From assembly GCA_965223905.1 (NCBI GenBank), contig CBDCXV010000001.1, positions 384,001-448,000 on the forward strand: a DNA stretch of 64,000 bases, read 5' to 3'. Made by a program: the position numbers and the translations under genes. Within the stretch, counting starts at the first letter, position 1. Each line of letters opens with the position of its first letter. Of this stretch, positions 27,504-64,000 are shown piece after piece. The DNA comes from Candidatus Latescibacterota bacterium (GTDB lineage Bacteria; Latescibacterota; UBA2968; UBA8231). The notes beneath the pieces were generated by a model, which saw nothing but the letters and a program-made list of their open reading frames with translations, was not told where the DNA came from and did not search any database.

Positions 27504-27624
27504 ACCGAAAAGGGTACGCAAAGGGCCGCGGCTTGAGTAGCCGTTCCCGAGCGATCACAGCGCCCGGTCAGGCGCACGTCCCCGCTTTTCCCGGTTCCAG
27601 CCAATGCGGATCTTCAGGGGTGCC

Positions 27625-42761: not shown

Positions 42762-42856
42762 GTCCCCGTCTCTGCCCCTCGAAGGCCCGCTCCGGTCAGC
42801 CACTCCCCTGGAATCTCGAACGGCGGATGCGGTCCGGAGGCAGGTGAGTTGATACG

Positions 42857-43510: not shown

Positions 43511-43559
43511 CCACCGGAAAGCCGCCAGGCCGAACATTTACAGAAAGGGAGGCAGACGG

Positions 43560-44784: not shown

Positions 44785-47025
44785 ATGGTTCTACTCCTTC
44801 TCGCAATCGTCCTCATCCCGATACCGGACCCTGCCGGGGCCGACGGCTGGCCCCACTGGAGGGGCCCCGGCCATAACGGCGCTTCCGGCGAGACCGGTCT
44901 GGTTTCGGCCTGGTCCCGATCCGGAAGCGGCCTGCTCTGGAGCGCCGACTTCAGCGGCCGCTCGACTCCCATCCTCATGAACGGCCGTGTCTACGTCATC
45001 GGCCGGGTCGGAGAGGGGATCACCGAGCAGGAGCGCATCGCCTGCTTCGACGCCGGCACCGGCGCCCTGCTCTGGGAGGACCGACTCAACGTCTTCCACA
45101 CCACGATCCCGTTCAACCGCGTCGGCTGGGCCAACCTCGCCGGCGATCCCGAGACCGGCAACGTCTACGCCCACGGGGTACAGGGGATCTTCAACTGCTA
45201 CTCCGGCCACGGCGAGCTGCTGTGGTCGCGGTCGCTGACCGAGGAGTTCGGCCGCATCTCCGGATACGGGGGCCGCACCCACACCCCGTTCGTCGACGGC
45301 GACCTCGTGGTGATCTCGTTCCTCAACTCGAGCTGGGGGAACCAGGCCGTGCCCCGGCACCGGTATTTCGCCTTCGACAAGAACGGCGGCGAGGTGGTGT
45401 GGGTGTCGACTCCGGGCGGGCGGCCCCTCGACACCACCTATTCGACCCCCGTGGCCGCCGATATCGGCGGGCAGCGGCTGATGATCGCCGGCAACGCCGA
45501 CGGGGCCGTTTACGCCCTGCGCGCGGCGACCGGAGAGAAGGTGTGGGGCTTCCGGCTCAGCAAGCGCGGCATCAACGTCTCCGTAGTAGCCGGCGGCGGC
45601 CGGGTCTACGTCTCCCACAGCGAGGAGAACGTCGACAACACCGAAATGGGCCGTGTCGTCTGCATCGACGCCACCGGCACGGGGGACGTGACCGGCACCG
45701 GGGAAATCTGGCGCCGCGACGCCTTTCTGGCCGGCTACGCCTCGCCCGCTCTCGACGACGGCAGGCTCTACGTCGTCGACAACTCCGCCAACCTGCTCTG
45801 CCTCGACGCCGGCGACGGGACCCTGCTCTGGGAGCGCAACATCGGCACCATCGGCAGGGGCTCCCCCGTGGTCGCCGGCGGCAAGATCTTCGTCGCCACC
45901 GTCAACGGCAGGTTCGAGATCCTGCAGCCGGGAGAGGGGGAGTGCCTGCTCCTCGACGAGGAGCTGCTGGCCGCGGAAGGGGGACGGCCGCTGGAGATCT
46001 ACGGCTCGCCGGCGGTCGCCTGGGGCTGCGTCTACTTCGCGACCGAAAACGGGCTGTTCTGCCTCGGCGATTCCTACCGCGGGCCTTCGACATCCGCACC
46101 CTCCGGCTCTTCGGCAGCGCCGCCGGGTGCCCCTGTTCCGGCGGATAACCCGCCTGCATCGATTCAGCTCGTTCCGGCGGAGGTTCTTCTCGCCCCGGGA
46201 GAGTCGGCGCGGTTCGCCGCCCGCCTCTTCGATGCCGCGGGCAGGCTGTTGTCGGATGCAGGCGCCGGCCCGCAGTCCGTGGACTGGAGCCTCGAAGAGC
46301 TGGCGGGGGAAGTCGAGGCGGAAGAAGCGGCAACGGCCCTTTTCACCGCGGTTCCCGAGGTTTCGCAGACCGGCCTCGTAAGCGCGAGCCTCCGTTTCGG
46401 GCCCGAGGAGAGGGCGGCCCTGGCCGCACTCGCCCGGGTGCGCGTGGCCGCGGAGCGCGGCTGGAGCGAAGACTTCGAGTCCCTGAGCGCGACCGAAGGG
46501 GAGAACGCCGCCCCCGCCCACTGGATCGGCTCGGCGCGCAAGTTCTTCGTCCGCGAGCTCGACGGCAGCAAGGTCCTGGCAAAACCTCTGGCAAAGCGCG
46601 GTCTGCAGCGTTCCAACGTCTACCTCGGCCCGCCGGGGATGTCGGGATACACCATCCAGGCGGACATGATGGCCGCCCGGGGCAAGCGCAACCGTCCCGA
46701 CATGGGGCTGATCGCCAACCGCTATACCCTCGACATGATGGGCAACCACCAGCGCCTGCAGATCCGCTCCTGGGCCTCCGACCTGCGCATGGCGAAAACC
46801 ATCGACTTCGAGTGGGAACCGGAGGTCTGGTACACCGTCAGGATGACCGTGGATGTCGAAGCGGACAGGGCGGTCGTCAAGGGCAAGGTCTGGCGCCGCG
46901 GCGAAGACGAGCCGCAGGACTGGACGATCGAAGCGGAGGACCCGCTGCCGAACCGCAACGGAAGTCCGGGGCTCTACGGGTACTCCGCCGCCGAGATTTT
47001 CTACGACAACGTCCGCGTTTGGTAG
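44785..47025 (+). CDS. Secreted PQQ-like beta-propeller protein with Ig-like and C-terminal beta-sandwich domains
   Basis: Signal peptide, WPHWRGP, repeated D..TG..LW and S(T)P blades. Confidence 0.88.
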   Translation: MVLLLLAIVLIPIPDPAGADGWPHWRGPGHNGASGETGLVSAWSRSGSGLLWSADFSGRSTPILMNGRVYVIGRVGEGITEQERIACFDAGTGALLWEDRLNVFHTTIPFNRVGWANLAGDPETGNVYAHGVQGIFNCYSGHGELLWSRSLTEEFGRISGYGGRTHTPFVDGDLVVISFLNSSWGNQAVPRHRYFAFDKNGGEVVWVSTPGGRPLDTTYSTPVAADIGGQRLMIAGNADGAVYALRAATGEKVWGFRLSKRGINVSVVAGGGRVYVSHSEENVDNTEMGRVVCIDATGTGDVTGTGEIWRRDAFLAGYASPALDDGRLYVVDNSANLLCLDAGDGTLLWERNIGTIGRGSPVVAGGKIFVATVNGRFEILQPGEGECLLLDEELLAAEGGRPLEIYGSPAVAWGCVYFATENGLFCLGDSYRGPSTSAPSGSSAAPPGAPVPADNPPASIQLVPAEVLLAPGESARFAARLFDAAGRLLSDAGAGPQSVDWSLEELAGEVEAEEAATALFTAVPEVSQTGLVSASLRFGPEERAALAALARVRVAAERGWSEDFESLSATEGENAAPAHWIGSARKFFVRELDGSKVLAKPLAKRGLQRSNVYLGPPGMSGYTIQADMMAARGKRNRPDMGLIANRYTLDMMGNHQRLQIRSWASDLRMAKTIDFEWEPEVWYTVRMTVDVEADRAVVKGKVWRRGEDEPQDWTIEAEDPLPNRNGSPGLYGYSAAEIFYDNVRVW

Positions 47026-47045
47026 CGGCACGGGGGGAAACAGGA

Positions 47046-48491
47046 ATGATGAAGGGTGTCTTCTCGAAGCCGCGACTCCGCGGTGCGGTCCTGGCCGCCA
47101 TGGCCGCAGCTGCGCCGGCCGCGGCTGCTGAAACCGCGATGTTCGGCTTCACCCCGGGACGCAACATGACTGTCGAGGCCAGTTCCCTGCCGGCCGGCTG
47201 GAACGTGGAGACCGGGGAGGGAATCCTGTGGACGGCGCAGCTCGGCTCCCAGACCTACGCCGGCCCCCTGATCCACGGGGGCAAGGTGTTCGTCGGCACC
47301 AACAACCAGGCGCTGTACAACGGGAAACTCACCGGCGACCGCGGCGTCATCGCCGCCTTCGCGCTGGGAGACGGCAGCTTCCTGTGGCAGTCGACGCACA
47401 CCAAGCTCCCTTCCGGGCGGGTCAACGACTGGCCGCAGCAGGGAGTCTGCTCGACCCCGTACGCCGAGGGGGAGCGCCTGTACTACATATCCAACCGCTG
47501 CGAGGTCGTCGCCGCGGACACCGAGGGGTTCCGCGACGGCGAGAACGACGGGCCCTACCGGGACGAGGCGGATTCCAGCGACATCGACGGGGACGTCGTG
47601 TGGAAGCTCGACATGATCGAGGAGCTCAACGTCTTCCCGCACAACCTGGCCGTCTGCTCTCCCGTGGCGGCCGGCGACCTGCTGTTCGTTATCACCGGCA
47701 ACGGCGTCGATGAAGGCCACGTCCACATCCCGTCGCCGTTCGCCCCCAGCTTCATCGCCGTCGACAAGAGAACGGGCGAGTTGGCCTGGGAGGACGCCTC
47801 CCCGGGGGAGAACATCCTCCACGGCCAGTGGTCGAACCCGGCTTACGGGGTCATCGCCGGCCGCCCCCAGGTGATCTTCTCCGGCGGCGACGGCTGGGTC
47901 TACGCCCTCGACCCGGCGACCGGCGCGCTGCTCTGGAAGTTCGACTGCAACCCCAAGGAATCGGTCTGGGAGCTGGGGGGCAGGGGGACGCGCAACGCCA
48001 TCATCTCGACCCCCGTCATCTACGGGAACCGCGTCATCATCGGCGTCGGCCAGGATCCCGAGCACGGCGAAGGGGTGGGCAACCTGTGGTGCATCGACGC
48101 CACCGGAAACGGCGACGTCACCGCGACCGCGGGGGTCTGGCACCTCGGGGGCAGGAGCTTTCACCGCACCATGTCGACGGCCGCCGTCGAAGGGGGCCTG
48201 GTGTACCTCGCCGACCTCAGCGGCTTCGTCTACTGCATCGACGCCGAGACCGGTGAGGTGCAGTGGAAGTACGACGCCTTCGCGGCGATCTGGGGGTCCG
48301 CCCTGGTCGCCGACGGCAAGGTCTACATCGGCGACGAGGACGGCGACGTGGCCATCCTCAAGACCGGGCGCGAGCTCGAGGTGATCGCCGAGATCAACAT
48401 GGGCAGCTCGGTGTACACCACCCCGGTCGCCGACTCCGGCATCCTCTACATAGCCAGCCGCAACCGCCTGTTCGCCATCGGTGCGCCGTAG
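47046..48491 (+). CDS. Secreted PQQ-like beta-propeller protein
   Basis: Signal peptide, GSQTYAGP, GVCSTP, repeated D..TG..W blades. Confidence 0.88.
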   Translation: MMKGVFSKPRLRGAVLAAMAAAAPAAAAETAMFGFTPGRNMTVEASSLPAGWNVETGEGILWTAQLGSQTYAGPLIHGGKVFVGTNNQALYNGKLTGDRGVIAAFALGDGSFLWQSTHTKLPSGRVNDWPQQGVCSTPYAEGERLYYISNRCEVVAADTEGFRDGENDGPYRDEADSSDIDGDVVWKLDMIEELNVFPHNLAVCSPVAAGDLLFVITGNGVDEGHVHIPSPFAPSFIAVDKRTGELAWEDASPGENILHGQWSNPAYGVIAGRPQVIFSGGDGWVYALDPATGALLWKFDCNPKESVWELGGRGTRNAIISTPVIYGNRVIIGVGQDPEHGEGVGNLWCIDATGNGDVTATAGVWHLGGRSFHRTMSTAAVEGGLVYLADLSGFVYCIDAETGEVQWKYDAFAAIWGSALVADGKVYIGDEDGDVAILKTGRELEVIAEINMGSSVYTTPVADSGILYIASRNRLFAIGAP

Positions 48492-48501
48492 CCGTCCGGG
48501 G

Positions 48502-49605
48502 ATGAGCGCGACCCCGGCAGAAAACCCGCCCGCCTCCCTGGCCGCGAAGGCCGCCGCTGCCCGGGAGCGGCTCGACGCCCACGTGCGCGAGCTGGTGCGC
48601 TGGCATTTCGGCCCCGATACCGGGTGCCCCTTCTGGCTCCAGTTCGCCGGACAGCTCGACTTCGACCCCCGCACCGAGATCGGCGGCTACGATGACCTGA
48701 AGCTGCTCGGGCACTTCCGCGACGAGTGGCTGCGCGGCGGGCCGGTGCGCAGGTGGGTGCCCAAGGCGTACGCGAACGATCCCGTGTACGTGTTCGAGAC
48801 CGGCGGCTCGACCGGCCTTCCCAAGAACCGCATCAACATCCGCGACTTCGAGATCGACTACCGGCAGTTCGGCGAGCGCCTTTCCGAAGAGGGGTTCCCA
48901 CAGGGCGGCGACTGGCTGATGCTGGGACCGACGGGACCGCGGCGACTGCGCCTGGCGGTCGAGCGCCTGGCCCAGATGCGCGGCGGCATCTGCTTCTTCG
49001 TCGACCTCGACCCCCGCTGGGTCAACAACCTGATCCGCCGCCGGGCCCACCAGGAGCTCGAGGCCTACAAGAGCCACGTCGTCGACCAGGGGCTGAAGAT
49101 CCTGCGCGCCCACGACAGCGTCCGCTGCCTGTTCACGACCCCGAGGCTGCTCGAGGCGCTGTGCGAGAAGGTCTCGCTCCCAAGGGCCGGGATCACCGGG
49201 ATCTTCTGCGGCGGCACCGAGATGGACGCCCAGTTCCACCGCTTCGCCCGCGAGGAGCTCGTCCCCGGCATCGACTTCGTGCCGACCTACGGCAACACCC
49301 TGATGGGTTTGGCGCACTGCCGGCCCTTCGAGCCGGGGCTGGGATACGACATCATCTACCATCCGCCGCACCCGCGCGCCGTCATCGAGCTCGTGGACCG
49401 GGAAGACAGCAGCCGTACGGTCGCCTACGGGGAGACCGGGCGGGTGATGCTGACGACGCTCACGCGGGAGTTCTTCATGCCCCGCTTTCTCGAGCGCGAC
49501 GAGGGGGAGCGCGCCGAGCCGGTCGACGACTACCCGTGGGACGGGGTCGCCAACGTGCGCCTGCTGTCGTCGCTGCAGGAGTCCGTGACCGTAGGGGTGT
49601 ACTGA
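48502..49605 (+). CDS. EhpF/GriC-like adenylate-forming (arylcarboxylate-activating) enzyme
   Basis: WHF..TG.PFWL, ETGGSTGLPK, GPTGP, FFVDLDPRWV, TTP, GGTE, YGNT, ERD and C-terminal GVY match my recollection of EhpF. Confidence 0.8.
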   Translation: MSATPAENPPASLAAKAAAARERLDAHVRELVRWHFGPDTGCPFWLQFAGQLDFDPRTEIGGYDDLKLLGHFRDEWLRGGPVRRWVPKAYANDPVYVFETGGSTGLPKNRINIRDFEIDYRQFGERLSEEGFPQGGDWLMLGPTGPRRLRLAVERLAQMRGGICFFVDLDPRWVNNLIRRRAHQELEAYKSHVVDQGLKILRAHDSVRCLFTTPRLLEALCEKVSLPRAGITGIFCGGTEMDAQFHRFAREELVPGIDFVPTYGNTLMGLAHCRPFEPGLGYDIIYHPPHPRAVIELVDREDSSRTVAYGETGRVMLTTLTREFFMPRFLERDEGERAEPVDDYPWDGVANVRLLSSLQESVTVGVY

Positions 49606-49610
49606 CCGCC

Positions 49611-51047
49611 ATGGCCGCACCCTGCCACATCCCGATTCTCAGACAGGGAGAGCCGTACCGCAGCCTGCGCCTGGAAACCCTGCGGCACACAGCCGGGGGC
49701 GAGCCGGTCGCCGAGGTCTCCCAGGCCAACGCCGGCCTCATGGCGCGCGATCTGTCGCGGGCCCACCTCGCGCAGCAGCAGCTGGCAGCGCTGCCGGCGG
49801 AAGAGCTGCTGCGGATCTGCCGCCGCGCCGGCGAGCTGTTCGCCTCCGCCGACCTGCCGCTCGGGGAGCAGGCGCAGCCCTTCGACACCTACGTCGCGCA
49901 GCTGTCGGCCACCACCGGACTGCCCCGGACCCTGTGCCGCAGCAATGCCGCCAAGATCGCCTCCGCCCTCGGACAGATGGCCGAGATCGTCGGCGGACTG
50001 ACGCGCGGCGCCGGGCTCGATATCATCGACAGCGGCTGGGGGGAGCAGGGCGCCCGCCCGCTCAGCTACCGGCGCCTGGCCGACGCTCTCGGAGCGGTGC
50101 TGCCCAACAATTCCCCCGGGGTGCACACCCTGTGGCTGCCTGCGCCGGCTCTGAAGATTCCGGTGGCGCTGAAGCCGGGCAGCAGGGAGCCGTGGACTCC
50201 CTTCCGCATCGCCCAGGCCTTCATCGCCGCCGGCTGTCCCCCGGCCGGCTTCAGCCTCTATCCCGGCGGCCACGACATCGCCGGGGAGCTGCTGCTCCGC
50301 TGCGGCCGCTCGCTGCTGTTCGGGGGAGAGGAGACGGTCGCCCCCTGGGCCGGCGACCCCCGCGTCGAGATACACGGCCCTGGGTGCAGCAAGATCCTGT
50401 TCGGCAGCGATGCCGCCGGCGACTGGGAAAGGCATCTGCCGCTGCTGCTCTCCTCGGTCGCCGACAACGGCGGCCGCTCCTGTATCAATGCCTCCGGGGT
50501 GTGGGTTCCCGCCCGGGGGCGCGAGATCGCCGAGGCCCTGGCCCGGCGCCTGTCCGAGATCGAGCCGCTTCCCCTCGACCACCCCGAGGCCGCCCTCGCC
50601 GCCTTCCCGGACCCGGACGCGGCCCGGCGGATTTCCGACTTCATCGATCAGAGGCTGGAAACTCCCGGGGCCGCCGACCTGACCGCGGCGGTTCGGGCAA
50701 ACGGCCGCGTCGCCACCGCCGGCGGGTGCACCTTCCTGCGCCCGACGGTGATCTGGTGCGAGGATCCGGAGCACCCGCTCGCCGACACCGAGTTCCTGTT
50801 CCCGTTCGTCGCCGTGGTCGAGGCTCCCGCGGAAGAGATGGCGGAACGGATCGGCCCTTCCCTCGTCGTCACCGCCGTGACCGAAGACGCGACGCTACGG
50901 GCGCAGCTGATGGGCTCTTCCAGGATCGACCGCCTCAACTTCGGGGAGGTGCCGACGAACGAGATCTCCTGGGACCAGCCGCACGAGGGAAACCTGTTCG
51001 AGCTGCTCTACAGGCAGCGGGCCTTCACCATGAGGCGGCGCGCCTGA
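49611..51047 (+). CDS. Aldehyde dehydrogenase-fold protein, EhpG/GriD/LuxC-like reductase
   Basis: LPNNSP, LKPG..EP, GRSCINAS catalytic Cys, EFLFPF; HGPG in place of the usual ELGG. Confidence 0.82.
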   Translation: MAAPCHIPILRQGEPYRSLRLETLRHTAGGEPVAEVSQANAGLMARDLSRAHLAQQQLAALPAEELLRICRRAGELFASADLPLGEQAQPFDTYVAQLSATTGLPRTLCRSNAAKIASALGQMAEIVGGLTRGAGLDIIDSGWGEQGARPLSYRRLADALGAVLPNNSPGVHTLWLPAPALKIPVALKPGSREPWTPFRIAQAFIAAGCPPAGFSLYPGGHDIAGELLLRCGRSLLFGGEETVAPWAGDPRVEIHGPGCSKILFGSDAAGDWERHLPLLLSSVADNGGRSCINASGVWVPARGREIAEALARRLSEIEPLPLDHPEAALAAFPDPDAARRISDFIDQRLETPGAADLTAAVRANGRVATAGGCTFLRPTVIWCEDPEHPLADTEFLFPFVAVVEAPAEEMAERIGPSLVVTAVTEDATLRAQLMGSSRIDRLNFGEVPTNEISWDQPHEGNLFELLYRQRAFTMRRRA

Positions 51048-52183
51048 TGCAGGGGTTCGAGTACGAGAGCGTAACCCGCCTGGTGTTCGGCACCGGGGCC
51101 CTGGCCAGGCTCGGCGGTCTGGCCGCAGAGCTCGGGGCCGGGCAGGTGCTGGTGGTCACCGACCCCGGCATCGCCGCCGCCGGCATCCTCGACAGGGCGA
51201 CCGAATCCCTCGCCGCGGCCGGATTGCAATACGCCGTCTTCGACGGGGTCGAGAAGAATCCTGGCAGCCGCCACGTCGAGACCGGGCGCCGCTTCGCCGA
51301 GGAGCTGCCGCGGCCGGCCGACTTCGTCGTCGCTCTTGGCGGCGGCAGCGCCATGGACTGCGCCAAGGGAATCAACTTCCTGCTGACCAACGGCGGCCGC
51401 ATCGAGGAGTACCGCGGCGACGGCAAGGCGAAAAAACCGCTGCTCCCGGCCATCGGCGTCCCGACTACCGCGGGGACCGGCAGCGAGGCCCAGCGCTTCG
51501 CCCTGATCGGGGAAGCGGAGAGCCGCATGAAGATGGCCATCGGCGACCGCACCGCCCGCTTCCGCGTCGCCCTGCTCGATCCCGAGCTGACCGCGACGGC
51601 TCCGCGAGAGGTGGCCGCGGCCGCGGCGGCCGACGCCATTTCGCACGCCGTGGAGAGCTTCGCCAGCGCCAACGGCAATGAGGTCTCGCGGATGTTCGCA
51701 GGCCGCGCGCTGCAGCTTCTGGCGGCCAACCTGCGCGAAAGCCTGCGCGCCGGCTCGGTCGCGGCGCGCGCCGGCATGCTGCTCGGAGCCCACTGGGCCG
51801 GGGCCGCCATCGAGAACTCGATGCTGGGGGCCGCCCACGCCTGCGCCAACCCCCTGACGGCCCGCTACGGGATCACCCACGGAGTGGCGGTCGGGGTGAT
51901 GCTGCCGCACGTGATCCGCTTCAACGGCGCCGCGGTCGACGGAAGCTACACCGAGCTTGCAAGAGCGGCCGGTCTGGAGGGGGCGGGGGCGGAGGCCCTG
52001 GCGGAGTGCGTGCGCTGCTGGAACGCCGAGGCGGACCTGCCTGAACGCCTGCGCGATCTCGACGTCGAAGCGGCCTCCCTGCCGGGCCTCGCGCGCGAGG
52101 CCGCGGCGCAGAGAACGGCGCGCTTCAATCCCCGGCCCGCTGGAGAGCGGGAGCTCGCGGGCCTGTACGAGGCGGCCTTCTGA
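51047..52183 (+). CDS. Iron-containing alcohol dehydrogenase
   Basis: GGGSAMDCAK, PTTAGTGSE, DAISHAVE, H..A, HG metal ligands. Confidence 0.93.
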   Translation: MQGFEYESVTRLVFGTGALARLGGLAAELGAGQVLVVTDPGIAAAGILDRATESLAAAGLQYAVFDGVEKNPGSRHVETGRRFAEELPRPADFVVALGGGSAMDCAKGINFLLTNGGRIEEYRGDGKAKKPLLPAIGVPTTAGTGSEAQRFALIGEAESRMKMAIGDRTARFRVALLDPELTATAPREVAAAAAADAISHAVESFASANGNEVSRMFAGRALQLLAANLRESLRAGSVAARAGMLLGAHWAGAAIENSMLGAAHACANPLTARYGITHGVAVGVMLPHVIRFNGAAVDGSYTELARAAGLEGAGAEALAECVRCWNAEADLPERLRDLDVEAASLPGLAREAAAQRTARFNPRPAGERELAGLYEAAF

Positions 52184-56742: not shown

Positions 56743-56764
56743 GAGCAGCGGCCCCGGCGGCAGG

Positions 56765-58030
56765 GTGCGGCGCGGGATAAGCGCCGGCCAGCTCGCCAGG
56801 CTCAGGGAGCTGCTCGGGCCGGTTCTGGAGCGGAACGGGTTCTACCGCCGCAAGCTGCGCGCCTCGGGGCTGGCAGAGGCCGGTGACGTGAGAACGACCT
56901 GGGACTACGCGCGGCTGCCGTTCACCACAAAGAGGGAGCTCTCGGTCGACCAGACCGCCCGACCTCCGTACGGCACCAATCTCACCTTCGACCGCGACCG
57001 CTACACCCGCCTGCACCTGACCTCGGGCACCACCGGCGAGCGCCTGCGATGGCTCGATACCGCCGAGAGCTGGGACTGGTGGGGCCGCTGCTGGGAAGAG
57101 GTGTACGCCGGCGCCGGGGTGCAGGGTAACGACCGCATTTTTTTCGCCTTTTCGTTCGGGCCCTTCATCGGCTTCTGGAGCGCCTGGGAAGGGGCCCGCC
57201 GCCTCGGGTCGCTGGCGATACCGGGCGGCGGCATGAGCTCCCAGCAGCGGATTGAGGCGATCGCCGCCAACGAGGCGACGGTGCTGGTCTGCACGCCTAC
57301 CTACGCCCTGCACCTGGCCGAGGTGGCGGGGGAACTCGGCGAGGACCTGCCTTCGGGCAGCGTCGCCATCACCATCCACGCCGGGGAACCGGGAGCCGGC
57401 CTGCCGGCCACCCGGGCCCGCATCGAGGCGGCTTGGGGTGCCCGCTGTTTCGACCACGCCGGCGCCACCGAGGTCGGCGCCTGGGGGTTCGAGTGCGGCG
57501 AACGGAGCGGGATGCACCTCAACGAGAAGGAGTTCATCTTCGAGGTGCTGGCCCCCGGCGGCAGCGACCCTGTCGCCGAAGGGGAGCTGGTCGTCACCAA
57601 TCTCGGCCGCGCCGGGATGCCGGTGATCCGCTACCGCACCGGAGACCTGGTGCGCCTCGCCGGGGACGGCCCCTGCAGGTGCGGCCGCCCGGGCAGACGG
57701 CTGCAGGGGGGCGTGATCGGCCGCCTCGACGACGCCCTGCTGATTCGCGGCACCAACGTCTACCCCAGCGCCATCGAGAACGTCGTGCGCCGCTTCCCGC
57801 AGGTGACGGAGTTCGCCGTCGACGTGCGCCGCCGGGGCGCCCTCGACGAGCTCGAGGTCCGGGTGGAGCTCGAAGCCGCGGACCCGGCCGGTCTCGAGTC
57901 GGAGCTGGCGCAGGCCCTGCACAGCGGCCTCGGCCTGCGCGCCGCGGTCGCCGTGGTTCCCGCAGGCACCCTGCCGCGCTTCGAGCTCAAGGCGCGGCGC
58001 GTCACCGATCACCGCGCGAACGATGGCTGA
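56765..58030 (+). CDS. Phenylacetate-CoA ligase (PaaK)/F390 synthetase-like adenylating enzyme
   Basis: LPFTTK, TSGTTG, AGEPG, HAGATE, RYRTGD, GRLDD, NVYPSAIE. Confidence 0.9.
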   Translation: MRRGISAGQLARLRELLGPVLERNGFYRRKLRASGLAEAGDVRTTWDYARLPFTTKRELSVDQTARPPYGTNLTFDRDRYTRLHLTSGTTGERLRWLDTAESWDWWGRCWEEVYAGAGVQGNDRIFFAFSFGPFIGFWSAWEGARRLGSLAIPGGGMSSQQRIEAIAANEATVLVCTPTYALHLAEVAGELGEDLPSGSVAITIHAGEPGAGLPATRARIEAAWGARCFDHAGATEVGAWGFECGERSGMHLNEKEFIFEVLAPGGSDPVAEGELVVTNLGRAGMPVIRYRTGDLVRLAGDGPCRCGRPGRRLQGGVIGRLDDALLIRGTNVYPSAIENVVRRFPQVTEFAVDVRRRGALDELEVRVELEAADPAGLESELAQALHSGLGLRAAVAVVPAGTLPRFELKARRVTDHRANDG

Positions 58031-59294
58031 TCCGGGCTACGACGTCGTCGTCGTCGGCGGGGGACCGGCCGGCGCCACCGTCGCTGCGCTGGTGGCGGAA
58101 AAAGGCCACCGCGTGCTCCTGCTCGAGCGCGAGGCCACCTCGCAGTTCCAGGTCGGCGAGTCGCTGATGCCGGGAACCTGGGCGACCTTCGCCCGCCTCG
58201 GCATGCTCGACCGGCTTCGGGCGAGCGCCTTCCCCAGGAAGTACAGCGTCCAGTTCTACGGCCGCTCGGGGCGCGCTTCGGCCCCCTTCTACTTCTTCGA
58301 AACCAACGACCACGAGAGCGCCGTCACCTGGCAGGTGCTGCGCAGCGAGTTCGACCGGCTGATGCTGGAGAACGCGCGCGAAAAAGGGGCCGAGGTGGAG
58401 GAAGGGGTGCCGGTGCGGGAGGTGGTTTTCGAGGGGCAGCGCGCCACCGGCGTAATCGCCGGGATGCCGGACGGAACCAGGAAGCAGATCCGCGGGCGCG
58501 TCGTCGTCGACGCCACCGGCCAGAGCGCCCTGGTCGCCCGGCGGCTCAAGCTGAAAAGCGACGAACCGGAGCTCAGGAAAGCCTCGATCTACACCCATTA
58601 CGAGGGGAGCGTCCGCGACGGGGGGATCGACGAAGGGGCCACCCTGATCCTGCATACCCGCAACCAGGACTCCTGGTTCTGGTACATCCCGTTGCCCGAG
58701 GATCGCGTCAGCGTCGGGGTGGTAGGCTCGCTCGACTACCTGCTGCGGGACCGCGCCGACGGCGGGGCGCAGCGGGTTTTCGACGCCGAGCTGGCGCTCT
58801 GCGAGCCGTTGCGGGAACGGCTGCGCCCGGCCCGCCAGCTGTTCCCCGTCAAGGTCACCAGGGACTTTTCCTACCGCGCCGACCGCATCTCCGGGGACGG
58901 CTGGGTGCTGGTTGGGGACGCCTTCGGCTTCATCGACCCGATCTACTCCTCCGGCCTCTTCTTCGCCCTGAAATCGGGAGAGATGGCGGCCGACGCCATC
59001 TGCGAGGGACTGGACCGCGGCGACCTGTCGGCGCAGCAGCTCGGCAAGTTCGGGCCCCGGTTCATCACCGGCATGGAGGCGGTGCGCAAGCTGGTCTATG
59101 CGTTCTACACCAGGGAATTCAGCTTCGCCGAGTTCCTGAAGCGCTACCCCGAGTGCAAGCAGGGGATCGTCGACATCCTCAGCGGCGACGTGTACAAAGA
59201 GGGAGTGCTCGACGTATTCGGGCCGATGTCGGAGATGATCGACCTCCCTGCGGACAAGGTCCTTATTAGGCGGAGCCTTTCGGATAGTTGCTGA
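58023..59294 (+). CDS. Flavin-dependent halogenase-like oxidoreductase
   Basis: GGGPAG, VGESL, Lys in FPRKYS, WFWYIP, GDAFGFIDPIYSSG. Confidence 0.85.
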   Translation: MADPGYDVVVVGGGPAGATVAALVAEKGHRVLLLEREATSQFQVGESLMPGTWATFARLGMLDRLRASAFPRKYSVQFYGRSGRASAPFYFFETNDHESAVTWQVLRSEFDRLMLENAREKGAEVEEGVPVREVVFEGQRATGVIAGMPDGTRKQIRGRVVVDATGQSALVARRLKLKSDEPELRKASIYTHYEGSVRDGGIDEGATLILHTRNQDSWFWYIPLPEDRVSVGVVGSLDYLLRDRADGGAQRVFDAELALCEPLRERLRPARQLFPVKVTRDFSYRADRISGDGWVLVGDAFGFIDPIYSSGLFFALKSGEMAADAICEGLDRGDLSAQQLGKFGPRFITGMEAVRKLVYAFYTREFSFAEFLKRYPECKQGIVDILSGDVYKEGVLDVFGPMSEMIDLPADKVLIRRSLSDSC

Positions 59295-59398
59295 CCCGGT
59301 CGTCCAAGTTTGGCGTTTATGGCTTCAATATTTTCCTTACAGGGAACCATTGTGCTATTGGCACTGCCCGATCCCCACAGCAGCCGAGCCTAGGATTA

Positions 59399-59419
59399 TT
59401 CCGATTTCCGAAATCGGAA
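59399..59419. promoter_or_regulatory. Perfect palindrome, candidate operator
   Basis: TTCCGATTTC-C-GAAATCGGAA: 10-bp arms with a 1-bp spacer. Confidence 0.45.
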
Positions 59420-59465
59420 GGGGTAGGGTAGGGCCAATGGACGGCTCCACGCAGCTGCTCCGGTT

Positions 59466-59648
59466 TGGAGGGATTTTGAGAAGCATTCTTTCGTAAAAAT
59501 CATTCAACTAGTTGCCCGTTCGCTTGGCGTACGTCTTACCAAAGCTGAATTAGCACAAATAGTACCTGTTACGGGTGCAGTAGTGGGGGCCGGTTTTAAT
59601 GCCTATTATACAGACAAGGCTTGTGACGCCGCTTTTTTTCTTGTATAG
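59466..59648 (+). pseudogene. C-terminal remnant of an EcsC-family protein
   Basis: WRDFEKHSFVKIIQLVARSLGVRLTKAELAQIVPVTGAVVGAGFNAYYTDKACDAAFFLV*; no start codon. Confidence 0.65.
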
Positions 59649-59653
59649 CCGAT

Positions 59654-60151
59654 ATGGACAGACCACGCGTATATGTTGAGGCCACGATCCCCAGCTTCTA
59701 CCACGAAGAACGCACCGCCCCCGACATCGTGGCGCGCCGGGAGTGGACCCAGCGGTGGTGGGACGGTGGTGCGTTCGAGCGCTACGAGCTGGTCACCAGC
59801 CCAGCCGTGCTGGACGAGCTGGCAGGCGGAATACCGGAGCGCAGCGCCAAACGGCTGGCACTGGTTCGGGATCTACCGCTCCTTCCCGTCGAGTTGCCCA
59901 TCGCCGAGATAGTACAGGGATATATCCGGCACAAGCTGATGCCGGCTGATCCTGGTGGTGACGCGCTGCACTTGGCGCTTGCATCATATCACAAGTGCGA
60001 TTTTCTGGTAACCTGGAATTGCCGGCATCTTGCAAACGCGAACAAGTTCGCACACATCCGCCGTGTGAATGCCATGTTAGGTCTTTTCGTACCCGGGTTG
60101 GTGACACCCCTGGAACTACTTGGAGGTAGTGATGGAGCAGAACCTGAGTGA
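59654..60151 (+). CDS. PIN-domain toxin (VapC-like)
   Basis: VYVEATIPS, VLDEL, DALHLALA, DFLVTWNCRHLAN. Confidence 0.88.
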   Translation: MDRPRVYVEATIPSFYHEERTAPDIVARREWTQRWWDGGAFERYELVTSPAVLDELAGGIPERSAKRLALVRDLPLLPVELPIAEIVQGYIRHKLMPADPGGDALHLALASYHKCDFLVTWNCRHLANANKFAHIRRVNAMLGLFVPGLVTPLELLGGSDGAEPE

Positions 60152-60728
60152 TCCGGTAATCGCGGAGATCCGTGAAGTGCGGCACCGCATCTCCGCGCGC
60201 TTTGATCATGATCCTGCGCAACTAGTGGGTTATTACATGGAACTGCAGATGCAGTACCAGGACCGAATGATTGGGACCGCCAAGGCAAGAGTAAGTAGCG
60301 GAAACAGAATTGTAGCCGGCAAGCAGACATTTCATACGAACTCGCATGGTCCTGATCAAGACGCCCTTCAACGCGGATTTGCGAAAACGACAGCATTGGC
60401 ACAAGCATTCTCGGGCAGCGCCTACGTTGCTGTTCATGGTGAGCGGAACATCCAGGATTGCTTTGAACCTCTTGTCGGGTCTGCAGGTGTGAAGGAACTT
60501 CTCAAATCGAAGTCAGTAAATCTTAATGACGTTGAATTCTATCTCCTGACCGAATGCATTGCACCAGTGTATGACGATCCGGCTCCTGTCTTTGCCCCTT
60601 ATGATAGTTTGAAATATACATTGTCTCTTCTACAGCAAGAGAAGTATACCGCGTTAGTATACGTACCGTGGACAAAGAGAGAACTCGACCAGTTCCTCGA
60701 AAAAATCCCGGATTCAGTTGAAATCTAG
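60132..60728 (+). CDS. Putative antitoxin-like N-terminus with long unknown extension
   Basis: DPVIAEIREVRHRISARFDHD resembles the small partners found downstream of this PIN type; overlaps the toxin. Confidence 0.55.
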   Translation: MEQNLSDPVIAEIREVRHRISARFDHDPAQLVGYYMELQMQYQDRMIGTAKARVSSGNRIVAGKQTFHTNSHGPDQDALQRGFAKTTALAQAFSGSAYVAVHGERNIQDCFEPLVGSAGVKELLKSKSVNLNDVEFYLLTECIAPVYDDPAPVFAPYDSLKYTLSLLQQEKYTALVYVPWTKRELDQFLEKIPDSVEI

Positions 60729-60841
60729 TCCAGGGGCAATCTACCTGAATGATGACCGCCGAGGGCATTCTGACGCCCAAGCTCATCTTGCACTGTAAAG
60801 CGCCGTAACGACATCCCCCCAACCTGGCCTTTTCATCCTCC

Positions 60842-61069
60842 GTGCGCGCCATCCTATACATCCTCCTTCTTCTCCTCTACGCCCTCCACAACGACCTCTG
60901 GCTGTGGGACGACGGCACCCTGGTGCTCGGCCTGCCCCCCGGGTTCCTCTATCACATCGGCTACTGCGTCGCAGCCGCCGGTCTCCTGGTCCTGCTCGTC
61001 AACTTCGCCTGGCCCCGGCACCTGTCCGAACCTGAGGGCGGGGAAGAGCCGGAGGACTCGCGGCCATGA
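60842..61069 (+). CDS. DUF3311-like small membrane protein (symporter accessory)
   Basis: LHNDLWLW..LGLP..YH, two TM helices, coupled to the symporter gene. Confidence 0.8.
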   Translation: MRAILYILLLLLYALHNDLWLWDDGTLVLGLPPGFLYHIGYCVAAAGLLVLLVNFAWPRHLSEPEGGEEPEDSRP

Positions 61070-62538
61070 CCCTGGGCGTCATCCTCGTCTACCTGCTGCT
61101 CGTCCTCTTCGTCGGGGGGCTGAGCCACCGCCTCTTCCGGGGGACCGGCGAGGACTACTTCGTCGCCAGCCGCACCGTCGGGCCGTTCCTGCTGCTGATG
61201 TCGCTGTTCGGCACCAACATGACCGCCTTCGCCATCCTCGGGGCCTCGGGAGAAGCCTACCACGAGGGGATCGGGGTGTTCGGCCTGATGGCCTCGGCCT
61301 CGGCCCTGGTCATTCCCTGCGTCTTCTTCTTCGTCGGCACGCGGCTGTGGGCGATCGGCAAGCGCCACGGGTTCCTGACCCAGGTACAGTACTTCCGCCG
61401 GCGCTGGGACAGCGACGGGCTGGGGCTGCTGCTGTTCGCGGTGCTGATCGCCCTCGTCGTTCCCTACCTGCTGATCGGGGTGATGGGAGGCGGACTGACG
61501 CTGCACCAGATCACCAAGGGGCAGGTCCCGGAGTGGGTCGGTGGGCTGCTGGTCTGCGCCGTGGTGATGACCTACGTCTGCTACGGCGGCCTGCGCGGCA
61601 CGGCCTGGGCAAACGCCTTCCAGACCCTCGTCTTCATGGTTCTCGGCGGCGTAGCCTTCGTCGTCATCCTCGGCGAGCTCGGCGGCCTCGAGGCGGCGAT
61701 GACGGCGGTGGCCGCCGCCCATCCCGACCTGATGGTCAGGTCGGCGCACATCGAGCCGGCCAAGTGGCTTTCCTACACCTGCATCCCGCTGTCGGTCGGC
61801 ATGTTCCCGCACATGTTCATGCACTGGCTCACCGCCCGCAGCGCCGGGACCTTCCGCTACCCGCTGATGTTCTACCCCCTGTGCATCGCCGCGGTCTGGG
61901 TGCCGAGCGTGACCCTCGGCATCGCCGGGCGCCTCGACTTTCCCGACCTCGCAGGGCCGGCGGCCAACTCGGTGCTGGTGAAGATGATCGACCTGCACGC
62001 GCCGGAGCTGCTGGCCGGGCTGCTGGCGGCCGGGGTATTCGCCGCGGTCATGTCCTCCCTCGACTCGCAGGTGCTGTCGATCGGGACCATGTTCACCCAG
62101 GACATCGTCCGCCACTACGGCGGGAAGGACAGCATGAGCGAGCGCCGGCAGGTGCTCTACGGCCGCCTCTTCGTCGCGGGGGTTCTGGTCGTCACCTTCC
62201 TCCTGGCGCAGGTGGCCGACCGCAGCATCTTCAAGCTCGCGGTCTGGTCATTCACCGGGTTCGCCTCCCTTTTCCCGGTGGTTCTGGCGGCGCTGTTCTG
62301 GCGCCGGAGCACGAAGGCGGGAGCCTTCGCCTCGATCGTCAGCGTCGTCCTGCTCTGGAGCTACTTCTTCGCCCGCGGCTGGGAGACCCCTGACTACACC
62401 GTCGCCGGCAGCGGCGTCATGCCGGTGGCCGTCATCCTCGCGGCGTCCGCGGCCGCCATGGTCGCCGGGTCGCTGCTGACGCGCCCGCCCGCGCCCGAGG
62501 TGCTGCGGCGCTTCTTCCCGGATCGGAACGGTTCGTAG
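61066..62538 (+). CDS. Sodium:solute symporter family protein
   Basis: DYFVASR, GGLRGTAWANAFQ, AAVMSSLDSQ, many TM helices. Confidence 0.92.
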   Translation: MTLGVILVYLLLVLFVGGLSHRLFRGTGEDYFVASRTVGPFLLLMSLFGTNMTAFAILGASGEAYHEGIGVFGLMASASALVIPCVFFFVGTRLWAIGKRHGFLTQVQYFRRRWDSDGLGLLLFAVLIALVVPYLLIGVMGGGLTLHQITKGQVPEWVGGLLVCAVVMTYVCYGGLRGTAWANAFQTLVFMVLGGVAFVVILGELGGLEAAMTAVAAAHPDLMVRSAHIEPAKWLSYTCIPLSVGMFPHMFMHWLTARSAGTFRYPLMFYPLCIAAVWVPSVTLGIAGRLDFPDLAGPAANSVLVKMIDLHAPELLAGLLAAGVFAAVMSSLDSQVLSIGTMFTQDIVRHYGGKDSMSERRQVLYGRLFVAGVLVVTFLLAQVADRSIFKLAVWSFTGFASLFPVVLAALFWRRSTKAGAFASIVSVVLLWSYFFARGWETPDYTVAGSGVMPVAVILAASAAAMVAGSLLTRPPAPEVLRRFFPDRNGS

Positions 62539-62575
62539 GGACCGGGCCGGGCCGCGTGGCTTTTCTCGTTCCCCC

Positions 62576-63907
62576 ATGCGCGTAGGCTACATCACCGCCG
62601 GGGCCGCGGGCATGTACTGCGGCGCCTGCATCCACGACAACACCCTTGCCGCGGCGCTGATGCGCCGGGGGGTCGAGGTCGCCCTGGTGCCGACCTACAC
62701 CCCGCTGCGCACCGACGAGGCGGACGTCAGCCTGAAGCAGGTGTTCTACGGCGGCATCGGGGTCTATCTCGAGCAGAAGCTGCCGCCGTTCCGGCGCATG
62801 CCCCGGTTCGTCGACTGGGCCCTCAGGCGTCCCGCCCTGCTGAAGGGGGTGTCGCGGTTCTCCGCGGCGACGCGGGCCGAGGACCTCGGGGCCCTCACCG
62901 TGTCCGTGCTCAAGGGACCGGAGGGCCATCAGCGACGCGAGCTCGAACGGCTCGTCGAGTGGCTGCGCACCGATTTCAGGCCCGATATCGTGCTGCTCAC
63001 CAACAGCCTCTTCCTCGGCCTGGCGGGGAGGCTGAAGAGCGCCCTCGGGGTACCGGTGCTGTGCGCGGTGCAGGGGGAGGAGATCTTCCTCGAGGCGCTC
63101 GTCGAGCCGTACCGCTCCCAGGTCCTCGGCCTGCTGCGCGAGCGAGCCGGCGACGCCGACGGTTTCGTCGCCCCCAGCACATACGCCGCCGACTTGATGG
63201 CGCAGTATCTCCAGGTCGAGCGCGACCGCTTCCGCGTGGTGCCCCTCGGGCTGCACCTCCCCGGACACGGCGAAGGCGACGCCGCGGCGCCCCCTTCCGC
63301 GGAGGCGCCGTTCACCATCGGGTTCCTGGCGCGGATCTGCCCGGAGAAGGGGCTGCACCTGCTCGCCGAGGCGTTCGCGCTCCTCGCCGAAGAGAGAGGT
63401 GCGGAGTCGGTGAGGCTGCTGGCTGCCGGTTGGCTCGGCGCCGGCGACCGCCCCTACCTGAGGGAGGTCGAGGAAACCCTGCGGCGGGCCGGACTCGCGG
63501 CGCGCTTCGAGTACCGGGGGAAGCTGGATCGGACGCAGAAGATCCGTTTCTTACGGGAGCTCCACGTGCTCTCGGTGCCGGCCCCCTTCAAGGAGCCGAA
63601 GGGGCTCTACGTCCTCGAGGCGCTGGCCAACGGCGTGCCGGTCGTCCAGCCCGATCACGGCGCCTTCCCGGAGCTGATCGCGGCAACAGGCGGCGGCCTT
63701 CTCGCCGCCGGGGCCACGGCGGAAGCGGTCGCGGCCGGCATCGGGCAGCTGGTCGACGACGAGGCCCTGCGGCAGCGCCTGGCCGCCCGCGGCAGAGAGG
63801 CGGTTCGCGAGCGCTTCAACGACGGCGTCATGGCCGCCGAGACCCACGCCCTGTTCGAGCGCTTCGTTCCATCCCGCCCGTCCACCCGCAAAGAGGAAAT
63901 CCCATGA
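62576..63907 (+). CDS. Glycosyltransferase family 4 with N-terminal YCGAC motif
   Basis: ARICPEKG, EPKGLYVLEALANGVPVV. Confidence 0.9.
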   Translation: MRVGYITAGAAGMYCGACIHDNTLAAALMRRGVEVALVPTYTPLRTDEADVSLKQVFYGGIGVYLEQKLPPFRRMPRFVDWALRRPALLKGVSRFSAATRAEDLGALTVSVLKGPEGHQRRELERLVEWLRTDFRPDIVLLTNSLFLGLAGRLKSALGVPVLCAVQGEEIFLEALVEPYRSQVLGLLRERAGDADGFVAPSTYAADLMAQYLQVERDRFRVVPLGLHLPGHGEGDAAAPPSAEAPFTIGFLARICPEKGLHLLAEAFALLAEERGAESVRLLAAGWLGAGDRPYLREVEETLRRAGLAARFEYRGKLDRTQKIRFLRELHVLSVPAPFKEPKGLYVLEALANGVPVVQPDHGAFPELIAATGGGLLAAGATAEAVAAGIGQLVDDEALRQRLAARGREAVRERFNDGVMAAETHALFERFVPSRPSTRKEEIP

Positions 63908-64000
63908 CCTGGTTGCTGTTCGCCTTCATCACCGTGGCCTCCTGGGGGCTGTACGGAGTCCTCCTGCACAGCGGACAGACGGCGATGGCCGATCCCGTCA
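63904..64000 (+). CDS. Membrane protein (DMT/EamA-like), partial
   Basis: MTWLLFAFITVASWGLYGVLLH; ATGA overlap with GT4; GAGG RBS. Confidence 0.65.
   Translation, partial: MTWLLFAFITVASWGLYGVLLHSGQTAMADPV

Follow-up and report, generated by a model that had tools for sequence, protein, structure and literature searches.

Can a run of closely packed genes that encode exported beta-propellers, an acid-reducing enzyme pair, a halogenase, a radical S-adenosylmethionine (SAM) enzyme and a glycosyltransferase be assigned a common function? The question is raised by a stretch of 64,000 nucleotides from a Candidatus Latescibacterota bacterium (assembly GCA_965223905.1, contig CBDCXV010000001.1, positions 384001-448000), which is referred to as the window; all coordinates are window positions. 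The genome comprises 7.92 Mb on 11 contigs, with a GC content of about 64% and a marker-gene completeness of 93.6%. Between 44785 and the end of the window, ORF calling yielded 16 open reading frames (ORFs) in the same direction on the + strand, for which the working names g1-g15 are used, with g13a for an additional ORF of 75 amino acids (aa). This run is a real, tightly packed and conserved gene cluster, composed of known enzyme families in an arrangement without a characterised counterpart. Its genes have stayed together in many uncultured bacteria associated with sponges. Most likely, the cluster builds a halogenated, sugar-tagged aromatic compound that is handled in the cell envelope. Its genes, and the gene pair that follows it, are:

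g1, 44785..47025, + strand: exported PQQ_2-type beta-propeller with a C-terminal beta-sandwich/ConA-like lectin (CBM66-like) domain (PQQ_2 116.6 bits)
g2, 47046..48491, + strand: exported PQQ_2-type beta-propeller (PQQ_2 93.2 bits)
g3, 48502..49605, + strand: stand-alone adenylating enzyme of the EhpF (GriC) type, predicted first half of a two-protein carboxylate reductase
g4, 49611..51047, + strand: partner of the aldehyde dehydrogenase (ALDH) superfamily, EhpG/GriD type, predicted to convert the acyl-adenylate to the aldehyde (Aldedh 53.7 bits)
g5, 51047..52183, + strand: iron-containing alcohol dehydrogenase (Fe-ADH 155.9 bits, ADH_Fe_C 119.3 bits)
g6, 52183..53316, + strand: beta-propeller lipoprotein, PQQ_3/PQQ_2 type (Beta-prop_ACSF4 179.7 bits, cut-off 133)
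g7, 53313..54665, + strand: HemN-like (class C type) radical SAM enzyme (Radical_SAM 74.4 bits, cut-off 29.5; HemN_C 31.6 bits, cut-off 24)
g8, 54649..56742, + strand: TonB-dependent outer-membrane receptor (Plug 70.2 bits, barrel domain 149.3 bits)
g9, 56765..58030, + strand: PaaK-like aryl/acyl-acid adenylating ligase (AMP-binding_C_2 71.9 bits)
g10, 58023..59294, + strand: flavin-dependent halogenase, phenol/pyrrole type (Trp_halogenase 95.8 bits, cut-off 21)
g11, 59654..60151, + strand: weak PIN-domain ORF, variable insert (PIN 21.4 bits, cut-off 23.6; third-position GC 0.64)
g12, 60120..60728, + strand: 202-aa ORF of no family, variable insert (third-position GC 0.50)
g13a, 60842..61069, + strand: 75-aa DUF3311-like small membrane protein, coupled to g13 (DUF3311 28.8 bits, cut-off 30)
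g13, 61066..62538, + strand: sodium:solute symporter (SSS) family transporter (SSF 140.2 bits; 12 hydrophobic segments)
g14, 62576..63907, + strand: GT4 family glycosyltransferase (Glycos_transf_1 83.2 bits, Glyco_transf_4 52 bits)
g15, 63904..64000 (ends 64374), + strand: 156-aa membrane protein with five hydrophobic segments, its start inside the window
LolD-like ATP-binding cassette (ABC) ATPase and 1126-aa FtsX-type permease, window-equivalent 64801-68882 (L111 1001-5082), same direction, 426 bases 3' of g15

Layout and conservation of the gene run

At the packed junctions of the run, genes overlap by at most 17 bases or stand no more than 37 bases apart. Neighbouring genes overlap by 1 base at g4/g5 (51047) and g5/g6 (52183), by 4 bases at g6/g7 (53313), g13a/g13 (61066) and g14/g15 (63904), by 17 bases at g7/g8 (54649) and by 8 bases at g9/g10 (58023). 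Spacers of 20, 10, 5, 22 and 37 bases separate g1/g2, g2/g3, g3/g4, g8/g9 and g13/g14, respectively. A preliminary description of the locus had named the same seven overlaps and spoken of about 14 co-directional, mostly overlapping or closely spaced genes forming one run that continues past the window end. This description is correct in almost every detail, and its broad interpretation withstood the tests applied here. The run does continue, but only for 374 bases, to the stop of g15 at window-equivalent 64374, where a gap of 426 bases follows; and although most of the genes are tightly spaced, the run is interrupted by two true gaps, of 359 bases 3' of g10 and of 113 bases 5' of g13a, between which g11 and g12 lie. 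Because DNA of about 70% GC gives long ORFs in every frame, GC content was checked by codon position. Third-position GC was 0.86-0.95 in 13 ORFs (g1-g10, g13a, g13 and g14), and long antisense ORFs reached 0.67-0.75 with the high value at codon position 1, the pattern of a shadow frame.

The ORFs g11 and g12, which lie inside the run, are a foreign insert outside the conserved pathway: their composition is deviant and neither was found in any of 18 related loci. No Pfam, NCBIfam or PADLOC match was obtained for g12, and no PADLOC match for g11. In G002, a genome of the same genus, the corresponding junction between the halogenase and SSS genes (59295-60841) is occupied by a gene for an Mrr-type restriction nuclease and by a 354-aa ORF without family match; other genomes carry nothing there. 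Since G002 has different genes in place of g11 and g12, the junction is a site of variable cargo.

Conservation of the gene order was analysed in two sets of loci. The first comprised 80 loci fetched with g3, with 10 kb on each side. By their public labels, 75 belong to Poribacteria, 2 to Latescibacterota and 1 to Gemmatimonadaceae, and 2 are named 'uncultured bacterium'; the closest public relative, whose g3 is 98% identical, is labelled Candidatus Latescibacterota bacterium. Similar gene orders had been suggested beforehand for Planctomycetes, Verrucomicrobia and Acidobacteria, and none of the 80 loci is so labelled. Upstream of g3, g1 was present in 70 and g2 in 73 of these loci, and g4 was found downstream in 67. 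Later genes were met less often (g5 25, g6 25, g7 15, g9 8, g10 5), because extra genes are interleaved and the loci end 10 kb after g3. The interleaved genes of the Poribacteria-labelled loci encode a small propeller, here called X, a sulfatase, an M19 dipeptidase and PhyH proteins. In 56 of the 79 clustered loci (e.g. L013 11269-11964), g3 and g4 are separated by gene X, a weakly Vgb-lyase-like propeller of about 231 aa. X is not at the g3/g4 position in the genome studied here, where the closest copy (59% identical) is located on contig C10 in an unrelated neighbourhood.

The second set consisted of 20 kb around g3 from 18 genomes, representing four families of the same class; several of these loci are cut by the 20-kb limit. 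In these 18 loci the order g1-g2-g3-g4-g5-g6-g7-(fourth propeller)-g8-g9-g10-(g13)-g14-g15 recurs. Thirteen genes are common in the same order, namely those for the three propellers, g3, g4, g5, g7, g8, g9, g10, the SSS transporter, the GT4 enzyme and g15. Individually, g1 was found in 15 loci, g2 in 17, g4 in 18, g5 in 17, g6 in 16, g7 in 16, g8 in 13, g9 in 13, g10 in 11, g13 in 6, g14 in 9 and g15 in 7. A fourth propeller gene stands between g7 and g8 in 11/18 loci, and two loci (L095 and L098) hold only the front part of the cluster at this place. The conserved synteny that the preliminary description had proposed to look for is thus strongly evident, the order being kept in 18 genomes of four families.

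Within the phylum, g3 was detected in 98 of 168 genomes at 70-98% identity, and an orthologue of g10 (E at most 1e-100) in 96 of 168. Both genes were present in 96 genomes and neither was found in 70; the two genomes with g3 alone are incomplete (84% and 86%). The distribution follows families:

Family f1: g3 in 48/75 genomes, g10 in 46/75
Family f2: g3 in 28/31, g10 in 28/31
Family f3: g3 in 1/3, g10 in 1/3
Family f4: g3 in 20/22, g10 in 20/22
Families f5-f14: g3 in 0/36, g10 in 0/36

Inside f1, whole genera (0/8 and 0/5 genomes) are devoid of both genes, and the cluster is therefore dispensable. In at least ten genomes g3 and g10 are distant or on different contigs, and both are retained; four genomes with g3 among unrelated genes keep g4 (58-59%) and g10 (64-65%) elsewhere on the chromosome. 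The most conserved member is g3, which is still 70-78% identical outside the genus. This co-occurrence pattern, observed in genomes that are related rather than independent samples, is the one expected of a single functional system. The region forms a single gene system, conserved and for the most part inherited vertically. The four genomes with a solitary g3 are the Poribacteria-labelled L026, L047, L069 and L070; their g3 (about 10000-11090 in each, 75-76% identical) is placed between a gene with a LON-substrate-binding domain and a gene for an M16 peptidase of about 970 aa.

Beyond these genomes, the g3 family is represented by at least 8000 clusters in metagenomes, the best 120 being 74-98% identical; a stored g3 homologue in the ESM Atlas led to generic AMP-binding clusters only. 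Nine sequencing runs each contained half or more of the words sampled from the stretch. Two metatranscriptome libraries labelled 'sponge metagenome' (one study) covered a small share of it.

The acid-reducing pair, the halogenase and their companion enzymes

The preliminary description had placed a carboxylate-reduction module in the cluster, and this module is real. g3 could be aligned with EhpF (PDB entries 3l2k/3hgu) over its full length (residues 23-357 of 367 against 19-355 of 366, E 7.2e-44). With about 365 aa it consists of the N-terminal domain of the ANL superfamily only and resembles EhpF in length; EhpF, as Bera et al. reportedly described in 2010, is likewise without the C-terminal ANL subdomain. 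The P-loop of adenylate-forming enzymes has the motif (T/S)GG(S/T)TGxPK. It reads ETGGSTGLPK in g3, with T100-G105, P107 and K108 invariant in 18 sequences. The gene is present in a single copy in this genome. Its neighbour g4, a divergent member of the ALDH superfamily, matches the ALDH-family protein encoded directly after ehpF in Pantoea agglomerans (27% identity, E 1e-37, residues 31-476 against 42-464), and equally the ALDH-type partner in the haloarchaeon Halalkalicoccus (28% identity, E 5e-38). Cys291 of g4, part of a GRSCxNASG motif, does not vary among 17 sequences; judged by the motif, we take it to be the canonical ALDH nucleophile. Pairs of EhpF-like and ALDH proteins in the same arrangement also occur on Streptomyces plasmids and in Halalkalicoccus, and some of the Streptomyces plasmid homologues (about 37% identity) are annotated as 'arylcarboxylate reductase'. 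By every sequence feature tested, g3 and g4 are a pair of the EhpF/EhpG kind, presumably acting on a different substrate. In a published gene table, the Pantoea pair is named ehpF and ehpG (PMC11278526). For the related pair GriC/GriD, another paper explains that 3-amino-4-hydroxybenzoate is turned by GriC into its acyl-AMP, which GriD reduces to the aldehyde (PMC10179220, citing Suzuki 2007).

A fatty-acid reductase of the LuxE/LuxC type was considered and rejected, since g3 gave no LuxE match (E up to 0.01) and 17 members of the g4 family gave no LuxC match (E up to 1). A g3-g4 fusion was rejected as well: open frames of 833 aa reflect upstream read-through in GC-rich DNA, and g3 and g4 lie in different frames. 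Longer forms of g3 were found in 15 matches, each with one member on one contig and possibly a read-through gene call, and were not counted as evidence for gene coupling. They include Aldedh plus AMP-binding proteins of 703-830 aa, one protein of 1258 aa that also carries ADH_Fe_C, and proteins of 740-803 aa combining PQQ_2 with a g3-like part. The following gene, g5, scored below the cut-off of all NCBIfam equivalogs, ErcA being the best (272 against 550).

The halogenase-like enzyme of the preliminary description is supported by motifs and sequence matches. In searches of PDB sequences, g10 matched the solved halogenases 8zop (E 6e-62), PltA (2e-54), CndH (2.5e-52) and Bmp2 (5.5e-47). It carries the FAD motif GxGxxG as GGGPAG and the WxWxIP motif as WFWYIP, and the Lys of its FPRKY segment aligns with that of FPKKF in PltA, which is presumably the catalytic lysine of halogenases. 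It is not CmlS, as the equivalog score is 177 against a cut-off of 900. From these features, g10 is a true member of the flavin-dependent halogenase family, though of no named equivalog.

The calls for a radical SAM enzyme, a GT4 enzyme and a transporter likewise proved right by family matches. g7 has the CxxxCxxC motif as CRKRCKFC and a GGGTP motif, and its PDB matches include HemN (E 1.2e-34) and the methyltransferase NocN (8.5e-30). It scored below the curated cut-offs for ChuW/HutW (179.1 against 400), HemN (173.5 against 324.95) and HemW (149.3 against 205.4); a true HemW (275.5 bits) is encoded on another contig of the genome. A methyltransferase role of g7 can be read from its family and is therefore put forward tentatively. 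A specific function in anaerobic haem degradation was rejected, as the ChuW score (179 against 400) is hardly above that for HemN and the haem-receptor model gave 67.4 on g8 against a cut-off of 316.85. The ligase g9 matched 2-hydroxyisobutyryl-CoA synthetase (E 1.8e-51) and PaaK (1e-49) in the PDB. Its assignment to PaaK and canonical phenylacetate catabolism was rejected: TIGR02155 scored 212.6 against 646.3, and PaaA (TIGR02156) was not found in the genome, the control search for it being positive in 4 genomes. For g14, all NCBIfam equivalogs remained under the cut-off. Thus g7, g8, g9 and the propellers, lying below the curated cut-off of every named family, are best described by superfamily.

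Exported propellers, receptor and transporters

In a hydropathy scan, the propellers and the receptor g8 displayed signal-like N-termini, and the enzymes displayed no hydrophobic segment. g1 begins with a hydrophobic segment, the N-terminus of g2 appears signal-like (by eye and by a crude hydropathy scan), and residues 12-15 of g6 form a lipobox-like LVAC, as judged by eye. PDB matches of all three propellers were confined to generic or BamB-type propellers and designed propeller repeats. The BamB equivalog TIGR03300 gave 60.2, 74.1 and 151 for g1, g2 and g6 against a cut-off of 285.2, and the quinoprotein model TIGR03075 gave 26.2, 45.1 and 70.3 against 480. Orthologues of g2 are 67-75% identical.

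The C-terminal 306 aa of g1 gave no match in Pfam or in PDB sequences by profile search. A structure model based on 19 sequences (mean pLDDT 75.7, and 80-96 across most of the last 160 residues) predicts a beta-sandwich and, after it, a jelly roll. For the jelly roll, CBM66 was the best compact fold match (4b1m_C; E 1.2e-5, TM 0.67 on the target, rmsd 3.9, 168 columns), and further matches were ConA-like lectin domains. In Poribacteria-labelled loci (e.g. L013 5529-7768), a propeller of about 439 aa and a lectin-like part of about 306 aa are encoded by separate adjacent genes, the latter with its own lipoprotein-like signal; g1 is a fusion of the two. As modelled, the lectin-like domain would fit a glycosylated ligand.

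The Plug and barrel domains of g8, a single-copy gene, score well above the Pfam cut-offs, while the TonB-dependent siderophore receptor model TIGR01783 was missed slightly (219 against 223.5). The small ORF g13a also precedes g13 in G002. Over its full length, g13 is 32% identical (E 4e-62) to an SSS protein encoded beside the EhpF-like/ALDH pair of Halalkalicoccus. g15, likewise in single copy, has no Pfam or NCBIfam match; its model shows five helices at low confidence (pLDDT 55.6), and its orthologues in 7/18 loci are 67-97% identical. The LolD-like ATPase downstream reached 243.9 bits against a cut-off of 307.75. It is found 3' of g15, at 62-69% identity, in all four related loci that reach that far, and the conserved system therefore probably extends past g15.

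Several genes upstream are recorded here for completeness. A penicillin-amidase family gene (36947-39130, 436.5 bits) ends 5.6 kb before the cluster, and in Halalkalicoccus (L092), too, a gene of the penicillin acylase family is found close to the EhpF-like/ALDH/SSS trio. Penicillin acylases release aryl-acetic or fatty acids; the neighbourhood could reflect a link to the cluster or chance. A cyclopropane-fatty-acyl-phospholipid synthase family gene (CMAS, 302.6 bits) occupies 39710-41011, and a 513-aa ORF of no family and with low third-position GC occupies 41996-43537 on the - strand. Further away, a gene at 27604-29166 encodes an ATP-dependent DNA ligase in which all three ligase domains are present, and a 1450-aa ORF at 1493-5845, in a stretch of lower GC (about 0.61), has a C-terminal NOV_C domain (34.5 bits) as its sole Pfam match.

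A candidate pathway, its rivals and related systems

From the enzyme families a route can be drawn in which a tailored aromatic alcohol or glycoside is made in the cytoplasm, exported, and bound or re-imported in the envelope; we consider the chances of this proposal to be about even. An aromatic carboxylic acid, self-made or in some lineages imported by g13, would be adenylated by g3. The adenylate would be reduced to the aldehyde by g4, as described for EhpF/EhpG and GriC/GriD, and g5 would take the aldehyde to the alcohol. Halogenation of the ring would fall to g10 and its C-methylation, or another alkylation, to g7, while g9 could activate a second carboxyl group for a coenzyme A ester, an ester or an amide. 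A sugar would then be attached by g14, and g15 together with the downstream ABC exporter would move the product out. Outside, the exported g1, g2 and g6 and the receptor g8 may bind, process or re-import it, as in metallophore systems. What the data show are the family assignments, the catalytic motifs, the kept gene order and the joint occurrence in genomes; from these we infer the substrate class, every reaction and the reaction order, as well as which way transport runs and what the propellers do. The chain from acid to aldehyde, alcohol and glycoside (g3/g4, g5, g14) is chemically coherent. Reductases that consume ATP and NAD(P)H are typical of synthesis, not of breakdown, and so are halogenases, radical SAM enzymes and nucleoside-diphosphate-sugar transferases. 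Synthesis is favoured because the reductase, halogenase, radical SAM enzyme and glycosyltransferase of the cluster point that way.

Several observations weigh against this proposal. Neither the cluster nor the scanned part of the window contains an enzyme that would form an aromatic scaffold, nor any chorismate-derived, polyketide synthase (PKS) or non-ribosomal peptide synthetase (NRPS) gene, and the substrate is therefore a guess. In a Pfam scan, neither the 15 cluster proteins nor 25 of 26 selected upstream ORFs of at least 150 aa (that at 15205-15714 was left out of the scan) yielded a core domain of the PKS, NRPS, terpene or phenazine kind; the statement of the preliminary description that no such core gene lies in the window thus holds for the proteins scanned. 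PltA, Bmp2, Mpy16 and CndH work on carrier-protein-bound substrates; no acyl or peptidyl carrier protein is encoded near the cluster, and the five PP-binding matches of the genome are all off this contig. Every NCBIfam equivalog stays below its cut-off for every cluster gene, so that no specific function is inherited, and the likeness to GriC/GriD comes from the 'arylcarboxylate reductase' labels of Streptomyces homologues, not from a sequence alignment. Expression as a single transcript is unsupported, because promoter and terminator sites were no more than in shuffled sequence: 3 promoter-like sites (0.9 expected) and 8 terminator-like sites (8.7 expected) were found in the region, none at an informative position. 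Short contigs from the RNA libraries match g1, g2, g6, g7, g8 and g13 with 0-2 differences, some others with 5-9 differences; they show presence without proving transcription, as DNA carry-over is possible. The bins over g11 and g12 were covered by no contig, to which we attach no meaning. The wide and stable inheritance is unusual for a secondary-metabolite cluster, and a core physiological role fits it at least as well. Finally, the TonB-dependent receptor and the SSS protein are importers, and the flow could run inward.

This last point leads to the main rival, which we regard as unlikely but the most serious of the alternatives: the cluster would serve the uptake and conversion of an external, e.g. 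host-derived, aromatic acid for salvage, detoxification or nutrition. The acid would be captured by g8, the propeller lipoproteins and the SSS transporter, and the enzymes of the cytoplasm would convert it. Two importers are at hand, the TonB-dependent receptor in 13/18 loci and the SSS transporter in 6/18, and the SSS protein that g13 resembles in Halalkalicoccus belongs to a catabolic-looking locus that also encodes an IclR regulator and an amine oxidase. The missing scaffold enzyme, the sulfatase, M19 dipeptidase and PhyH genes interleaved in Poribacteria-labelled loci and the upstream penicillin-amidase gene would also suit it. Halogenases, class C-type radical SAM enzymes and GT4 enzymes are, to our knowledge, foreign to catabolic routes; acid reduction at the expense of ATP and NAD(P)H is energetically costly; a conserved ABC exporter follows downstream; and neither ring-cleavage nor beta-oxidation nor paa oxygenase genes are in the cluster, PaaA not having been found in the genome at all. 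An imported carboxylic acid was also part of the preliminary description. The SSS transporter is indeed present here, but it lies in the cluster in only 6 of the 18 related loci, and import is therefore not a fixed part of the system.

The remaining alternatives are weaker still. An envelope component, such as a lipid, lipoglycan or polysaccharide decoration placed by the GT4 enzyme, g15 and the LolD/FtsX pair with the propellers as BamB-like helpers, appears improbable. The conserved 3' end (GT4, five-helix membrane protein, LolD-like ATPase, FtsX-type permease), the BamB-like fold of the propellers, the lectin-like domain of g1 and the stable vertical inheritance, which fits a structural role, speak for it; the g3/g4 pair, of the aryl-acid (EhpF/EhpG) type and without LuxE or LuxC match, does not, the cluster showed no gene for an acyltransferase, a polyprenyl-phosphate transferase or a Wzx/Wzy-type protein, and whole genera of the same family dispense with the system. 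Somewhat less probable again is a supply of cofactor, in which the enzymes make a small redox-active aromatic compound (a halogenated or methylated aldehyde, alcohol or quinone) that is exported as the prosthetic group of the propellers. The enzyme genes have three or four exported propellers as constant companions, inheritance resembles that of a core function, and halogenase-type flavoproteins are related to cofactor maturases, g10 scoring 133.6 bits with QhpG and 99.4 bits with LodB. PqqC was not found in the genome, a weak negative since the control search was positive in no genome. Against a cofactor, g10 scores higher with halogenases than with maturases and carries halogenase motifs, the propellers are of BamB size, reach only 26-70 bits of 480 with the quinoprotein dehydrogenase model and offer no nameable catalytic or cofactor-binding residues, and the glycosyltransferase would have no obvious place. 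Very improbable, in our estimate, is the absence of any common function, with several small unrelated operons as mere neighbours. The real gaps around g11 and g12, the uninformative promoter and terminator scans and the splitting of the cluster in some genomes speak for it; the gene order kept across four families and the joint presence or absence of g3 and g10, unlinked cases included, speak against it.

Our literature search returned no description of the operon besides one preprint, which in its accessible part lists such clusters as orphan, in line with the uncharacterised pathway of the preliminary description. The preprint defines, for sponge metagenomes, a pseudoclass Halo_AMP of clusters with a flavin-dependent halogenase together with an AMP-binding enzyme (Loureiro et al., bioRxiv 2026, 10.64898/2026.08.03.742642). 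According to the accessible text, PQQ-like domains are frequent in Halo_AMP clusters, which also contain radical SAM enzymes, TonB-dependent transporters, toxin-antitoxin genes and glycosyltransferases; Latescibacterota account for 9% of the families and Poribacteria for 8%; and no MIBiG match was found and no product is given there (10.64898/2026.08.03.742642). The same text describes sponge microbiomes as rich in halogenated aromatics whose makers are mostly unidentified (10.64898/2026.08.03.742642). The cluster of the present study, in which g10 stands together with g9 and g3, falls under the Halo_AMP definition. It has a genuine halogenase, its g3 occurs in 98 of the 168 genomes sampled from the phylum, and its relatives are mostly Poribacteria-labelled; it is thus a concrete, testable candidate for a widespread sponge-symbiont metabolite.

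The implications differ with the reading. The locus is the clearest case known to us of orphan PQQ-like propellers genetically locked to a defined set of enzymes, and gives a handle on their function. It also places the two-protein aryl-acid reductase of EhpF/EhpG and GriC/GriD, which has been little studied, in a new and much more widespread setting. Should the pathway serve uptake or the envelope instead, it would still be a lineage-defining trait without described function. If the cofactor reading were true, a second cofactor system resembling that of pyrroloquinoline quinone (PQQ) would be at hand, giving a function to the very large orphan family of PQQ_2 propellers.

Compared with known systems, the composition of the cluster agrees with the general description of Halo_AMP, which was the level of comparison rather than its individual families; the accessible text does not name an EhpF/EhpG-type reductase, and frames these clusters as a source of small halogenated peptides. 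With BamB and PQQ-dependent dehydrogenases, the propellers have the repeat type in common (Pfam PQQ_2/PQQ_3), but here a single enzyme cluster holds three copies, of which one carries a fused lectin-like domain. The cluster-binding motif, GGGTP and the HemN_C domain link g7 to HemN, HemW, ChuW/HutW and NocN/NosN, whereas its scores set it apart from HemN, HemW and ChuW/HutW as named families. Among halogenases, PltA, Bmp2, Mpy16 and CndH match g10 over nearly the full length (E 2e-54 to 5.5e-47) and have the FAD motif, WxWxIP and the aligned Lys in common with it. In contrast, g10 (423 aa) does not have the long C-terminal extension of CmlS (chain of 591 residues) and CndH (512 residues).

The closest parallels concern the acid reductase. 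GriC/GriD of the grixazone cluster of Streptomyces griseus are, in the accessible account, likewise a two-protein, ATP-dependent system for the conversion of an aromatic acid to its aldehyde, consisting of an AMP-binding protein and a reductase; genes of the griH/griI type for synthesis of 3-amino-4-hydroxybenzoic acid (3,4-AHBA) were not seen in the window. EhpF/EhpG belong to the D-alanylgriseoluteic acid phenazine cluster of Pantoea agglomerans. Bera et al. are said to have proposed in 2010 that they reduce phenazine-1,6-dicarboxylate to the 6-formyl compound. The identity to g3/g4 is just 27-33%, and the phenazine core genes phzA/B, D, E, F and G were not among the scanned window proteins, so that the substrate must differ. 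Both proteins nevertheless align with g3 and g4 from end to end, and the two pairs have gene order and tight coupling in common.

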